Positions 24,691 through 52,798 of a stretch of DNA of 64,000 bases are shown in pieces. The notes under the pieces are model-generated. The model was not told where the DNA came from, ran no database searches, and was given only the letters and a program-made list of their open reading frames with translations. The translations under genes were made by a program, and so were the position numbers. Origin of the DNA: Escherichia phage E20; sequence record OP745616; one strand, written 5' to 3'. Position 1 is the first letter of the stretch, and every line of letters starts with the position of its first letter.

Positions 24691-25791
24691 TCTGGTAGGT
24701 GGCTCAGAAGCTGCTGCTAGGTGTGGTAGTGTTTATAGTCCTGATGCTACTACTGGTCAGGATTATAGACGTGTCGGCTCCATACATAGCTTTTATCATC
24801 ACTGTCATTATCCTGTGGAAATGCAGTGGTAAACACGGTGGTGACAAGCCGCCAGAATAACAACAACCGAACCAGTGGATTGGAATACTCTCCCCAGTCC
24901 ATTGGTTCAATCGGGGTTACTATGAACAAATTTACTATTCACTGGCTCAATGGAAAGGTTAGTTCTTTCATGGGTGGAGAACCTGCTGAAGGAAGCATTG
25001 AAAAAGAGTAGTTAATATCGTGAAGGGTTCTGTTAGAATCTTTTGAGATAGGAACTCCTATCATAACCTTTCTTAACTTAATCTTTGCCGTATGGCACTG
25101 ACGCTAGGGGTGGCCCCCCATCCGTCAGACAGACTATTTTAAGAATGGGTTATCTCAGAAAATGTAAAGCAACATTCGGGTTAATCAATGGCCTCTCCTA
25201 TAGGGGCCATTTCTGAATCTTAGGCTATATCCCAAAGGTTAGTATCTTTGGGATAAGGCTTCAGATCCCTTATCAAACTAACCGCTCATGTTGAGCATAT
25301 TAATTAACCCAGCCCACTAAGGGGGCGGGAGTTTAATGCCGGTAAGCATAAGCCTATCCGACTACAACATCGAACTGTTAGGTCTTACATGCAACATAGG
25401 GTATAAAGGGAGGATTCGTCCCCTCCCTCCTATTATGAACTACCGGAGAGTGCATTAGTTGATTAGCTGTGGAAGGTAGGCCGATGTCCACAAGCGTGGC
25501 CCAGAGCTAGTGTACTCCCCGATAGTTTTCGTAGCGATTATGCGGTTTTTTAGAAACGAACCAATAACATAAATGCAAACGAAGAAGCGTATCTGATGGT
25601 CGCCTAACAGCGTAACCTCAGTCAGGAGTGAGTCGTCCTGATTATCAAACGACCATGGAGTTCTCCCGTCCATGTATTAGAAACGGGGGGCCAATTACCA
25701 GTTGCACGAGATGGCTTGACATGCTCAAGTTTGGACTAAGTGTGACACCGCTAGATTGGAGGGCTGCTGCGGTAAGCTATAGACTCCAACC

Positions 25792-25819
25792 GGAGGTTCG
25801 AATCCTTCACTGGTAACCA
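25792..25819 (+). other. tRNA 3'-half-like element (T arm + acceptor strand + CCA); full tRNA not resolved
   Basis: ggagg-ttcgaat-ccttc T arm followed by actggta-a-cca; matching 5' acceptor strand taccagt lies ~120 nt upstream (25697), too far for a standard tRNA. Confidence 0.25.
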
Positions 25820-25947
25820 ATCAGAAGTAGCACTGCATAGAACGCGAAAAGGTTCAGCGACGTTAGCCATACGGTATTGTAAGGTTCGAGTCCTTACCTA
25901 TGAGCAGTGACGACTGCAACAGTGCTACTTCTAATTGGAATAAATAT

Positions 25948-26025
25948 TGTGGGTGAGCATACGGTTATGCTACAGGCTTCCACACCTGTATGTGAAGTGA
26001 GGTTCAACTCCTCCGCCTGCAACCA
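25948..26025 (+). tRNA. tRNA-like element with atypical anticodon arm (possible tRNA or pseudo-tRNA)
   Basis: manual cloverleaf: acceptor tgtgggt/gcctgca (3 G-U pairs), D stem gcat/atgc, anticodon stem acagg/cctgt with 8-nt loop cttccaca, T arm gagg-ttcaact-cctc, 3' CCA encoded. Confidence 0.3.
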
Positions 26026-26592
26026 AACAATGGGGGTAAGTCGTAAATACGACGGCGTAAGTACCAGATGAAACCTCTGGACGCCCCTACCATATTTGAG
26101 ATGTAACAGTTAAATCCGTACCCGGAAGTGCTATTCTAGATACGCTGCCAATGTGGAGACGGTAAGGCTGTACAGGACTCGGACTCCCATCTCAAACCAA
26201 AGTCGCCAGGTACTTATGGCAAACGGGTAGTAACGAACTAGTCATTCGTCAAACGCCCACCTAATTATGAGTCAGCAAGAACGCCTTCACTTAAACTTAA
26301 ACAAAAAAGCTTAACGCAATAATTATGTAGGGGTATGTAAGGATTGCGAAGAAGGAGCCAGTTAGAGCCTGGCATGACTCACCTAATATGAGCACGTCTA
26401 ATCATCCTGGTTAAGCAGTAGCTAATTACTTATTGCTGTAAAATGAACTACTTAATATAGTTCTTCAGATACAGAGTAACTTGGTTGGATGGGGTAGGTA
26501 TCCTGCCCCTGCTCATTCTATTATAGGTAGCTCGTACTAGTTACGAGGCAGTCAATCTGTGGCAGTGTAAGGCTGCCCTACCCTTTCATTAA

Positions 26593-26665
26593 TACCCGGT
26601 AGGCTTAGTGGCAAAGCCCCACTAGTAAACTAACTAGGACGCAGGTTCGAATCCTGCCCGGGTAA
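26593..26665 (+). tRNA. tRNA (isotype undetermined; non-canonical anticodon arm)
   Basis: manual cloverleaf: perfect 7-bp acceptor tacccgg/ccgggta, D stem ggct/agcc with loop tagtggcaa, T arm gcagg-ttcgaat-cctgc; anticodon arm ctag/ctag core does not give a standard 7-nt loop. Confidence 0.5.
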
Positions 26666-26674
26666 TCATACTAT

Positions 26675-26748
26675 GTCCACTTAGCTTAGACTGGGAAAGC
26701 AACCGACTAATAATCGGAAGGTCACTGGTTCAAATCCAGTAGTGGACA
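26675..26748 (+). tRNA. tRNA (anticodon read as AAU in 7-nt loop cuaauaa; isotype uncertain)
   Basis: manual cloverleaf: 7-bp acceptor gtccact/agtggac, D stem gctt/aagc, anticodon stem ccga/tcgg, T arm actgg-ttcaaat-ccagt; 74 nt; 9 nt after preceding tRNA. Confidence 0.55.
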
Positions 26749-26985
26749 CCCATTCAGCAGTAACATAGTCCTGATTGCATAGCACTCTAAAGACAACACT
26801 GGTAAGACAGTCCAGTGGCTGCTAATGTATTGTTATTCCCCTCGACGGGAATTTCGCTAGTGAAGGTAACACTTAAAAATCCAAACCTACGTCTTACTAC
26901 TATCGGGCTATCAACCCACGGTCGCTTAACCCACTAGTGGTAGTAGTTTGACGGCCTGCCTCGTTGACTGCGTTAAAGTCACTAA

Positions 26986-27021
26986 GTCCCCTGGAGCCGT
27001 CACTCTGGGGGACTTTTTTAT
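26986..27021 (+). terminator. rho-independent terminator closing the RNA-gene region
   Basis: stem gtcccc/ggggac with 15-nt loop followed by ttttttattt. Confidence 0.5.
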
Positions 27022-28636: not shown

Positions 28637-28930
28637 ATGGAACTCTTTAAGAAAGGGCAGCTTATACCAAAGCGTATCGGTGGATTGCATGTCCATCGTA
28701 AAGCAAGACACCGTTTAGTCTTTGGTTGTGATGTACAAATTGATGGTAATAATTGGATTGCCATACCTGATACTGGTAACACAATGATTCACTGCAAGAA
28801 GTTAGGTATTCGTAGAAACAATGGTACTTATCAAAGTGTACATGCTGATTTTGTAGATATTCATTTTGAAGCTAACAAAATTGATTATGTAATCAAGACT
28901 GAACGAAAAATTCTTGTAGTTAAGAAATAA
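28637..28930 (+). CDS. hypothetical protein
   Basis: ATG 28637 preceded by aggagcag RBS within ORF frame 28493..28930; followed by strong terminator. Confidence 0.4.
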   Translation: MELFKKGQLIPKRIGGLHVHRKARHRLVFGCDVQIDGNNWIAIPDTGNTMIHCKKLGIRRNNGTYQSVHADFVDIHFEANKIDYVIKTERKILVVKK

Positions 28931-28936
28931 ATTAGA

Positions 28937-28967
28937 AGCCCCTCCTTTGAGGGGCTTTTTTATTTTA
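28937..28967. terminator. bidirectional terminator between convergent plus and minus blocks
   Basis: stem agcccct/aggggct flanked by A-run upstream and T-run downstream (ttttttatttt); sits between 28930 (+ stop) and 28965 (- stop). Confidence 0.55.
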
Positions 28968-52182: not shown

Positions 52183-52798
52183 TACATGCCTCCAGTGGTA
52201 CATTACCAATTCGGTTAGCTACCCAACCATACGTAAAGTCTGGCATGTTCAATGAGGTGTAGTGGTTCAGCTGTTTAGCATCAAGTAACTTAATCACTAC
52301 CTGACATGCTGCAACTTTGCCTCGTTTTTTCTGTAATGCTTTATATGCATTAACAGTACCTGCACCGACTTTACCATCAACTTGTATTTTAGGGTAGTCT
52401 TTGCCATCACGGGACATTTCATTAAGAGATTGCTGCAACCACTTAGCTGGTCTGGTTACACCGGTATTAACACCAGCATCAACCAGTTTATGTGTTACAG
52501 CAGGAGATATATCAGCGAAGGCTACGAAGTTAGGCTTAAGTACGTAGTCATCAATGTATATCTCAGCAGCCATCTCTTTCGATAAACCCTTCATGGAACC
52601 ATTCCAACCATACTCCGTAGCCAGAACTTCTTTATGAGACTTAGCTACTGATTGGGTAATACCATGATTAGTTTCCCCACCTGGGTCACGGGGATTGTTT
52701 ACGTACCCTCCTTCCATATAAAACACTGCCCCCAGAATAGCAGCGACAACTCCTCCCACTGCACCACCTTTTGCAGCAAGTTTCTGTTTAGCTTTCAT
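52163..52798 (-). CDS. GH108-family N-acetylmuramidase endolysin with SAR-like N-terminus
   Basis: hallmark EGGYVNNPRDPGGETNHGIT motif; N-terminal Gly/Ala-rich weakly hydrophobic segment KGGAVGGVVAAILGAVFY. Confidence 0.7.
   Translation of the reverse strand: MKAKQKLAAKGGAVGGVVAAILGAVFYMEGGYVNNPRDPGGETNHGITQSVAKSHKEVLATEYGWNGSMKGLSKEMAAEIYIDDYVLKPNFVAFADISPAVTHKLVDAGVNTGVTRPAKWLQQSLNEMSRDGKDYPKIQVDGKVGAGTVNAYKALQKKRGKVAACQVVIKLLDAKQLNHYTSLNMPDFTYGWVANRIGNVPLEACNEDANL

Follow-up and report, generated by a model that had tools for sequence, protein, structure and literature searches.

Escherichia phage E20 carries, within the 64,000-nucleotide stretch analyzed here in full (sequence record OP745616; the window), about 2 kb of DNA in which no credible open reading frame (ORF) is found (25012-26983), and the question is what this DNA encodes. 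An earlier reading made from the letters alone (the sequence-only reading) had remarked on the gap and had offered structured RNAs, degenerate tRNAs, or an origin or regulatory region as explanations. Comparison with other phages points to the first of these. The 2-kb stretch appears to be a mosaic, varying by gain, loss, and exchange among relatives, that is assembled from about 12 separate + strand cassettes of structured RNA, one of which, designated S3, resembles the coding part of transfer-messenger RNA (tmRNA) and has no tRNA-like domain (TLD). We consider it likely that the array has this anatomy, being modular, made of structured RNAs, and equipped with a tmRNA-like coding cassette that lacks a TLD. 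The sequence-only reading had noticed neither the tmRNA-like module nor the division into cassettes, nor their spread among phages that are unrelated.

The cassette mosaic and its junctions

By its sequence, the 64-kb window is assigned to Gamaleyavirus (a G7C/N4-like coliphage of the Schitoviridae). Its nearest relative is Bas96 (96.6%), followed by KKP 3715, ST4, PhAPEC5/7, Bp4, ECBP1, and IME11. Block-wise BLAST of the 2-kb region against nine relatives divided it into pieces that a relative either has whole or lacks and that meet at sharp, recurring junctions (25689/25691, 25835-39, 26030, 26200, 26264, 26388-92, 26512-24, 26588, and 26672). At these junctions, relatives carry alternative cassettes: a tRNA-Cys(ACA)-like gene, a degenerate tRNA-Ala(CGC), and stem-loops with different cores. 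Most cassettes feature an acceptor-like closing stem, and in five of them an encoded CCA stands behind it (25691, 25817, 26023, 26090, and 26197), followed by A(A/T)T; the same junction syntax occurs in N4 and in one Ackermannviridae phage. The region also contains five T-arm-like GGTTCGAATCC motifs. Compensatory changes across phage families back at least five of the modules, and the structured-RNA option of the sequence-only reading is thereby strongly supported. The predicted features are as follows.

25012-25246, + strand: S1a, left block, 94-99.6% identical among the Gamaleyavirus relatives compared
25247-25443, + strand: S1b, Kuravirus-shared block, with matches in 76-79-kb Kuravirus genomes at about 25246-25524
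25448-25517, + strand: S2, a 13-bp closing stem (25448-25460/25505-25517) around a core of about 44 nt (25461-25504)
25521-25690, + strand: S3, tmRNA-like coding module (sub-threshold Rfam match, tag conservation, covariation)
25695-25819, + strand: S4, 125-nt tRNA-like four-way junction with double changes in acceptor, T-stem, and hairpin
25817-25938, + strand: S5, closing stem 25817-25835/25920-25938 around a core with a T-arm at 25880-25896
25947-26025, + strand: S6, tRNA-Sec-like cloverleaf (RF01852, 33.5 bits versus a gathering score of 47)
26032-26092, + strand: S7, small three-way element GGGGG...CCCC, then TACCA (fold z = -2.6)
26095-26199, + strand: S8, a 9-bp closing stem (26095-26103/26188-26196), then CCA, around a nearly invariant core of about 85 nt
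26200-26592, + strand: S9-S11, less well resolved cassettes (z = -2.4 and -2.0)
26593-26665, + strand: tRNA-like gene with a 6-nt anticodon loop, AAACTA (Rfam 40 bits; ARAGORN "tRNA-???")
26675-26748, + strand: tRNA-Ile, anticodon AAT (AAU) (Rfam 65 bits; ARAGORN tRNA-Ile(AAU))
26757-26873, + strand: S12, stem-closed element GCAGT/GCTGC (26757-26822) with inner hairpin CACTGG/CCAGTG, then hairpin AGTG/CACT (26859-26873)
26984-27021, + strand: intrinsic terminator closing the array (13-bp stem 26984-27015, 7 GC pairs, T run); the PhAPEC5 record has a terminator annotation here

The tmRNA-like coding module S3

The lead to S3 was a sub-threshold Rfam match to tmRNA_permuted at CATAAAT followed by GCA AAC GAA GAA GCG TAT CTG ATG GTC GCC TAA. 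Read from the resume codon GCA at 25575, a 10-codon tag ORF (25575-25604) would specify ANEEAYLMVA. Its stop codon TAA (25605-25607) lies in the loop of a hairpin (25601-03/25610-12; compare helix 5 of tmRNA) in which two pairs show double changes. A helix AGTTTT/GAAAC (25524-29/25553-57) lies upstream, and two H-type pseudoknots lie downstream, a (25623-27/25636-40 with 25632-35/25650-53) and b (25654-59/25669-74 with 25665-68/25684-87); the stems of both covary, some second stems being misaligned by MAFFT. Covariation was assessed in a 20-sequence alignment with 500 shuffles and slid controls. Standard pairs are formed by 80.5% of cells, and 12 pairs have double changes. Double-change cells numbered 60, versus 24.6 ± 3.6 after shuffling; none of the 500 shuffles reached 60, and the slid controls gave 4 to 20.

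Homologues of S3 in HK633, phiMAM1, and BUCT541 align across the tag ORF and beyond, and two pattern scans of IMG/VR yielded about 150 further loci. The 10-codon tags occur in 29 distinct DNA versions that follow the pattern AN[DE]xx[YFV]L[AM][AV]A and include synonymous changes. Besides the tag of the window, they include ANEEMYLAVA, ANDDVVLMAA (in seven DNA spellings), ANDEQFLAVA, ANDNVFLAVA, ANDDQFLAVA, ANEEVYLAVA, ANDNAYLMVA, ANDTQYLAVA, ANEERFLMAA, and further variants, and all three stop codons (TAA, TAG, and TGA) are seen. Gamaleyavirus has two of these alleles, ANEEAYLMVA and ANDDVVLMAA. Because the 29 DNA versions keep the 10-codon tag through synonymous changes, the peptide itself is under selection. 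We think that the tag is read on ribosomes, since nothing else explains this pattern of conservation. Two other candidate features were rejected: an ATG frame (MQTKKRI) that overlaps the tag is conserved in neither length nor sequence among homologues, and a terminal helix around S3 (CTCCCCG/CGGGGGG) has changes in its 5' strand that are uncompensated in relatives.

In BUCT541-type phages, a promoter-like site (TTGACA-17-TAGATT) lies directly upstream of the S3-type module, and a T5-like contig has a promoter-like site just upstream of its own, suggesting that the module may be expressed independently in other phages. The exact extended S3 pattern is found in only three species-representative bacterial genomes, all Enterobacterales; S3 is therefore not a copy of a resident bacterial ssrA gene. 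BLAST found no similarity between S3 and E. coli ssrA, and S3 was missed by Rfam at the gathering score, by ARAGORN, and by PGAP. The possibility that the region pairs as an antisense RNA with ssrA or rnpB of the host was also considered and rejected, the sole match being 10 nt: 25523-25532 (TAGTTTTCGT), in the most conserved 5' part of S3, is a perfect complement of nt 97-106 of E. coli ssrA, in the host tag codons. The E value of this 10-mer is 2.2, and a match of this kind is expected about once by chance.

ARAGORN and Rfam (E ≤ 1) found no TLD for S3 anywhere in the 64-kb window, and ARAGORN was silent for S3 and all of its homologues. The same program did call complete permuted two-piece tmRNAs with G3:U70 ("tmRNA*") in two unrelated IMG/VR loci. 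These genes (L071, 485-913, and L156, 11391-11718; one contig is 281 kb) carry the tags ANDSHFLQAANA and ANDSTYLKAA. Against a gathering score of 47 bits for the Rfam tmRNA models (RF00023/RF04321), S3 scores 23.1 bits with tmRNA_permuted and 16.7 bits with beta_tmRNA, and its homologues score 11 to 12 bits with RF00023. Thus, S3 has a resume codon, a short tag ORF conserved as a peptide, and a stop codon in a helix-5 loop; it lacks the TLD (an acceptor with G3:U70, a T-arm, and a 3' CCA) and falls below the gathering score. Since it fails the TLD test and every model threshold, it was not filed as a tmRNA, and we describe it as a putative tmRNA-derived or tmRNA-like coding RNA. Weak sub-threshold Rfam matches elsewhere in the window, to STnc100 (26.8 bits) and U6atac (25.1 bits) at 28876-28967 and 52610-52724, are probably noise.

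Other cassettes, tRNAs, and sharing among phages

The S2 core is invariant in Gamaleya-, Kura-, and Kaypoctavirus and in Ackermannviridae and probably forms a pseudoknot (GTGGA/TCCAC with GGCC/GGCC). Its closing stem occurs in three unrelated sequence versions, with both-side changes in 10 of the 13 pairs, and the fold has a z score of -4.1. In Bp4 the stem is retained around a different core; the cores are therefore exchangeable. A hammerhead-like CUGANGA in the core was rejected, as the window reads CUGUGGA and no Rfam ribozyme matched.

The sequence-only reading had listed several T-arm/acceptor-like elements as lacking standard partners. Three of these elements are real, at 25792-25808, at 25880-25896, and at 25947-26025, the last being a complete cloverleaf (S6), and partners do exist: 25695-25702 pairs with 25809-25816, and 25817-25835 pairs with 25920-25938. 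In S4, the first of these pairings is an 8-bp acceptor (TTACCAGT/ACTGGTAA), and a canonical T-arm (25792-25808, GGAGGTTCGAATCCTTC) is followed by ACTGGTAA and the encoded CCA (25817-25819). Double changes affect three pairs of the acceptor and one pair each of the T-stem and a hairpin, the two long arms being invariant, and a Kuravirus analogue has a covarying acceptor (TTACAGGT/ACCTGTAA) plus CCA. S4 was called by neither ARAGORN nor Rfam. The closing arms of S5 (19 nt, 95% complementary) enclose a T-arm (25880-25896, TAAGGTTCGAGTCCTTA), with compensatory changes in the closing stem and the T-stem relative to Bas96, L056, and IME11; its fold z score is -4.45. Relatives either carry S7 whole or lack it. 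S8 has double changes in three stem pairs and is present in N4 proper (L061) and in a Certrevirus tRNA cluster (L062). A homologous relationship of S4 or S8 with ssrA or rnpB of E. coli was rejected, as the best BLAST match to the MG1655 genes had E = 0.6.

The S9-S11 interval, bounded or divided by junctions at 26200, 26264, 26388-92, 26512-24, and 26588, contains a stem-closed three-way element (about 26268-26381), a decayed T-arm/acceptor copy (26493-26508; repeat family D10), and a cloverleaf-like element (26526-26582); 26518-26581 is common to KP8. S12 is conserved in N4, KP8, and an IMG/VR phage, with double changes in both hairpins. At the left end, hairpins are predicted in S1a at about 25022-25044, 25047-25062, 25098-25128, 25187-25212, and 25228-25255, and its first 40 nt or so (TATCGTGAAGG..) are common to Kuravirus PGN6866. 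Both hairpins that the sequence-only reading had singled out, at 25228-25255 and 25408-25427, are present. G>A changes weaken the stem of the former in three relatives. The S1b hairpin GATAAGG/CCTTATC (about 25251-25273), which overlaps it, covaries with Kuravirus (two double changes). The other, GGGAGG/CCTCCC, has an ATAGG/CCTAT extension and one double change in the GGGAGG stem. One S1a spot, 25079-25092, matches both T4 rnaC (ATCTTTGCCGTA, E = 0.03) and rnaD (TAATCTTTGC, E = 0.33), which may reflect a shared motif or chance.

Rfam placed the two tRNA cloverleaves at 26593-26665 and 26675-26748, exactly where the sequence-only reading had drawn them, and ARAGORN agreed; with both programs, these were the only two tRNAs found in the region. 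They alone reach the RF00005 gathering score of 29 bits, and S4, S5, and S7 gave no tRNA match to this model even at E ≤ 10. A 7-nt anticodon loop with a readable anticodon is present in 26675-26748 (AAT) and absent from 26593-26665 (6 nt) and S6 (8 nt). The 6-nt loop is retained in five relatives, IME11 having a compensatory acceptor change; the tRNA-Ile gene shows a compensatory anticodon-stem change in KKP3715. Aligned to RF01852 over 25947-26022, S6 has a 9-bp acceptor, a 6-bp D-stem with a 4-nt loop, a 4-bp T-stem, an 8-nt anticodon loop (CTTCCACA), and a 3' end reading ACCA. The lengthened acceptor and 6-bp D-stem are those of tRNA-Sec and allo-tRNAs; the UCA anticodon in a 7-nt loop, the long variable arm (5 nt versus 18 in the model), and a score of at least 47 bits are lacking. 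S6 was found only in the window and Bas96, and the anticodon loop differs between them. Adenosine at the wobble position is rare in bacteria. It is frequent among the tRNAs of these arrays (26675-26748 of the window; L006, 1384-1462; L011, 1266-1357 and 3082-3155): the window has Ile(AAT), Bp4 has Cys(ACA), and phiMAM1 has both Cys(ACA) and Pro(AGG). The irregular tRNAs (Ile(AAU), Cys(ACA) and Pro(AGG) in other phages, and the tRNA-like genes with 6- or 8-nt loops) are plausible decoys or replacements that would counter tRNA-directed host nucleases.

Sub-blocks of the region were searched against 50,697 phage records, and four intervals were also found in other groups.

25246-25524: also in Kuravirus (phiEco32-like, 76-79 kb)
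25458-25505: also in about 300 Ackermannviridae and one 111-kb T5-sized record
25510-25690: also in Serratia phage phiMAM1, lambdoid HK633, 46-kb siphoviruses (BUCT541, Akira, C1, and Bas79), and Klebsiella N4-likes
26086-26205: also in N4 proper and 150-kb Certrevirus phages

Several cassettes thus recur in Kuravirus, Ackermannviridae, Certrevirus, N4, the 46-kb siphoviruses, T5-like phages, and lambdoid HK633, and in every case the number of annotated features under the match was zero. The matches lie in a tRNA cluster in phiMAM1, BUCT541, UPM 2146, F1M1E, and KP8 and in the late-operon leader, between pR'/qut and the holin gene, in HK633; N4 has an array of this kind as well. Of 5426 complete E. 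coli genomes, 157 contain the HK633-type array, and PGAP annotates nothing there. In lambdoid and 46-kb phages, the modules are spaced by a conserved inverted repeat, (CACAA)CAGGTAAGAGCATT ... AGTGCTCTTTCCG(TTGTGG), seen at L010 1432-1444, 1682-1694, and 1766-1778 and also in L012, L014, L018, and L024. Its U.U mismatch is conserved and the loops between the arms vary. The arms alternate, so either set of modules could be the enclosed one, and the repeat may serve for RNase III cleavage or for cassette exchange. A 111-kb record, OR844942.1 ("Enterococcus phage Efm 3-10," UNVERIFIED_ORG; L059), has an S2 core typical of enterobacterial phages, and its assignment to an Enterococcus host seems doubtful.

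Readings of the array and comparison with known systems

Comparison across phages shows cassettes that are discrete, structured, evidently under selection, mobile between phages, and co-located with tRNA genes. The stretch is likely the form that the tRNA island of N4-like phages takes in Gamaleyavirus, a polycistronic array transcribed rightward. In all of the relatives named above, the gene-free stretch lies after the ssb-side gene block and before gp48/gp49-like genes and the virion RNA polymerase gene, which has the opposite orientation; N4 itself has about 1.5 kb without ORFs at the equivalent place. The composition is ordinary (GC 0.40-0.50), and the terminator (26984-27015 plus T run) is the strongest in the neighborhood. 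The claim that the region is ORF free held for 25012-26983, with this strong terminator at its end. It did not hold between the acidic-protein gene and 25011, where two short conserved ORFs lie (24699-24860 and about 24841-25011); the noncoding stretch therefore begins at 25012. The first of these ORFs (53 aa, short, hydrophobic, membrane-like) has a counterpart in N4 proper that is recognizable by eye and probably encodes a real small membrane protein.

The functional steps that follow, taken alone, are tentative and somewhat doubtful. Transcription would read through from the upstream + strand middle genes to the terminator at 26984-27021, and host tRNA-maturation enzymes would cut the array at the acceptor-like closing stems. 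E. coli RNase P recognizes 3'-RCCA. Because five cassettes end in a stem, (N), and CCA, RNase P and tRNA 3'-end processing are the candidate activities; RNase III may also cut the long perfect stems (13 to 20 bp). The products would be stable, tRNA-sized small RNAs acting on the host translation machinery as tRNAs, look-alikes, or decoys, and the S3 tag ORF would be read on rescued ribosomes, or S3 would compete with host tmRNA. Cassettes were most likely exchanged by recombination in shared stems and at the "CCAAT" junctions.

A broader proposal, possible though doubtful, is that enterobacterial phages share a mobile pool of cassettes that mimic tRNA ends, one of them a form of tmRNA that works without a conventional TLD. 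S3 might be a free-standing coding piece, loaded on ribosomes rescued by host Ala-tmRNA/SmpB or by an unrecognized acceptor RNA. Alternatively, its last pseudoknot with the following (N)CCA (25654-25693, in N4-like phages) might serve as an acceptor mimic, as in the tRNA-like structures of plant viruses. Either way, rescued proteins would be retagged with a peptide ending in -VA, possibly not recognized by host ClpXP.

Several findings weigh against the array and S3 as read here. Canonical trans-translation of the tag needs a linked alanine-accepting TLD, whether covalent or base paired, and none was found; S4 has C3:G70, not G3:U70, and S3-S4 duplex energies (RNAduplex) were no better than those of shuffles. 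S3 has no established equivalent of PK1, the upstream pseudoknot of genuine tmRNAs; the one helix seen there is 90% paired with one double change. Presence/absence variation among relatives indicates that no single cassette is essential, S1a and S9-S10 are too alike among Gamaleyavirus relatives (94 to 99%) for structure testing, and some pieces are truly decaying (26493-26508 and the S6 anticodon loop).

Among the alternatives, it is unlikely, though conceivable, that S3 is a decoy that mimics the message and pseudoknot region of tmRNA, titrating protein S1, RNase R, or the SmpB tail/mRNA channel, or blocking host trans-translation. No TLD exists anywhere in the window, the complementary half, a tmRNA of mycobacteriophage DS6A that consists of the TLD alone, reportedly inhibits the tmRNA of the host (PMC4131195), and the 10-nt complementarity of 25523-25532 to the ssrA tag codons (E = 2.2, possibly chance) would fit. 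However, a pure decoy needs a structure and not a conserved peptide, whereas the tag length, the stop codon, and the C-terminal L[AM][AV]A are kept through synonymous change.

It is improbable that the array is a tRNA graveyard, in which a once larger cluster decays neutrally and only the two intact tRNAs function. Other tRNAs do occupy the same junctions in relatives (Cys(ACA) and Ala(CGC) in Bp4), and individual phages dispense with cassettes. The degenerate-tRNA option of the sequence-only reading stands for the T-arm copy at 26493-26508 and the drifting S6 anticodon loop and falls for the rest. Neutral relics would gain indels and lose reading frame, but here stems covary and cores are invariant across phage families that share nothing else, S2, S3, S8, and S12 are not tRNA shaped, and all 29 DNA versions retain the 10-codon tag ORF.

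A split two-piece tmRNA, with S3 as the coding piece and S4 (elsewhere another CCA-ending cassette) as the acceptor piece, is distinctly improbable. S4 lies directly 3' of S3 in the window and KP8, two-piece permuted tmRNAs with full TLDs and related tag starts exist in L071 and L156, and the region before the resume codon (CATAAAT, followed by GCAAACGA) resembles the permuted-tmRNA consensus. S4, however, with its C3:G70, is without the alanine identity pair and closes on itself through covarying pairs; inserts of 200 to 340 nt separate S3 from S4 in Bas96 and PhAPEC5, HK633 and the 46-kb phages have S3 but not S4, and no specific S3-S4 pairing was found. Specific intermolecular pairing of S3 with S4 or with M2 was rejected as a candidate, the RNAduplex energies being at the shuffle level. 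A one-piece tmRNA spanning 25441-25819 (5' TACCGGA with ACTGGTA) was also rejected: KP8 lacks the distal strand, the local 5' strand covaries, and relatives insert 200 to 340 nt.

A replication origin or other DNA-level regulatory region, the remaining option of the sequence-only reading, is very improbable: the stretch is long, noncoding, and rich in inverted repeats, but no iterons, tandem or direct repeat arrays, or AT-rich dip were found in it, its features are of a strand-specific RNA type (tRNAs, CCA ends, a terminator, all on the + strand), and the same modules lie inside tRNA operons and in a late-transcript leader of other phages.

The longest ORF on either strand of 25012-26983 is 72 aa, and Pfam gave no match for six of the seven ORFs of at least 40 aa, the five longest among them. 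One 40-aa ORF matches phrog_37481, a PHROG of unknown function that was assembled from similarly short annotated ORFs and appears to derive from one such ORF; relatives show indels that are not multiples of 3 across this ORF. In public records, Bas96 (L001, 1575-3548) and Mimir124 annotate 8 to 10 "hypothetical proteins" of 29 to 70 aa on both strands across the array, which are likely annotation artifacts. Missed small protein genes are thus hardly credible: short ORFs are annotated in Bas96 (10, of 29 to 70 aa), Mimir124, and PhAPEC5 and one has the PHROG match, but they lie on both strands, overlap tRNA-like structures, lack Pfam matches, and suffer indels that are not multiples of 3 in relatives, and other annotators call none.

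The tRNA-island aspect of the array is ordinary; specialists would be surprised by an unannotated cassette family and above all by a tmRNA-like module that lacks a TLD and is selected at the peptide level. Should the cassettes be functional, a few percent of coding capacity in many familiar coliphage groups goes to unannotated structured RNAs, in N4-like, phiEco32-like, Vi01-like, rV5-like, and T5-like phages and in lambdoid prophages, and current pipelines overlook such RNAs or miscall them as tiny proteins. A tmRNA message domain without a tRNA domain would, if functional, challenge the view that both halves travel together, and S3 would be a direct handle on phage tampering with ribosome rescue and protein tagging. 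The odd tRNAs (A34 anticodons, 6- and 8-nt loops) would be natural candidates for decoys or replacements against tRNA-targeting defense nucleases. Conserved stems with swappable cores suggest a natural mechanism of cassette exchange for RNA genes.

A search of the literature on phage tmRNA-like RNAs and on N4-like noncoding regions found no description of these modules; its coverage was incomplete, and an earlier description is possible. The large, ornate phage RNAs GOLLD and ROOL and the Y RNA-like YrlA, which mimics tRNA, resemble the array in their association with phage tRNA genes and their modular structured RNA. GOLLD and ROOL are each one large RNA, in contrast to the many small independent cassettes here; Rfam gave no GOLLD or ROOL match at E ≤ 10, and YrlA scored 18.2 bits (gathering score, 69) over the T-arm only. 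T4 species 1 and 2 (rnaC and rnaD), the classical stable non-tRNA RNAs of a phage tRNA operon, of unknown function, are alike in location, and the T-arm and acceptor-like end of rnaC recalls S4 and S5. They differ in having no convincing sequence homology, only the 10- to 12-nt words at 25079-25092. "Allo-tRNAs" resembling tRNA-Sec and polycistrons of irregular tRNAs have been reported in some phages and bacteria (Mukai et al., PMC5389517). S6 shares with them a 9-bp acceptor, a 4-bp T-stem, a 6-bp D-stem, and a polycistron with other odd tRNAs and differs in its nonconserved 8-nt anticodon loop, the absence of a long variable arm, and a score below the tRNA-Sec gathering score.

The family nearest to S3 is tmRNA (SsrA), especially the permuted two-piece form (PMC11915505, PMC4131195). 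The likeness lies in the GCA resume codon after ..ATAAAT, the 10-codon tag with its AN(D/E) start and hydrophobic-A/V-A end, the stop codon in a hairpin loop equivalent to helix 5, and the H-type pseudoknots downstream. Unlike tmRNA, S3 has no acceptor stem, T-arm, G3:U70, or D-loop analogue, scores 11 to 25 bits with the Rfam tmRNA models, and has two downstream pseudoknots rather than three and no proven PK1. S3-type tags mostly end in VA rather than AA, and in some phages the module has its own promoter-like site directly upstream. The tmRNA database, in its 2014 and 2025 papers, holds 79 phage tmRNAs, found with TLD-dependent tools; it also has "no-CDS" forms such as that of DS6A and no TLD-less form (PMC4131195, PMC11915505). 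The TLD-only tmRNA of DS6A is likewise one half of a tmRNA in a phage (PMC4131195, PMC11915505), and the halves are opposite: DS6A keeps the TLD without a tag, whereas S3 keeps the tag and the pseudoknots without the TLD.

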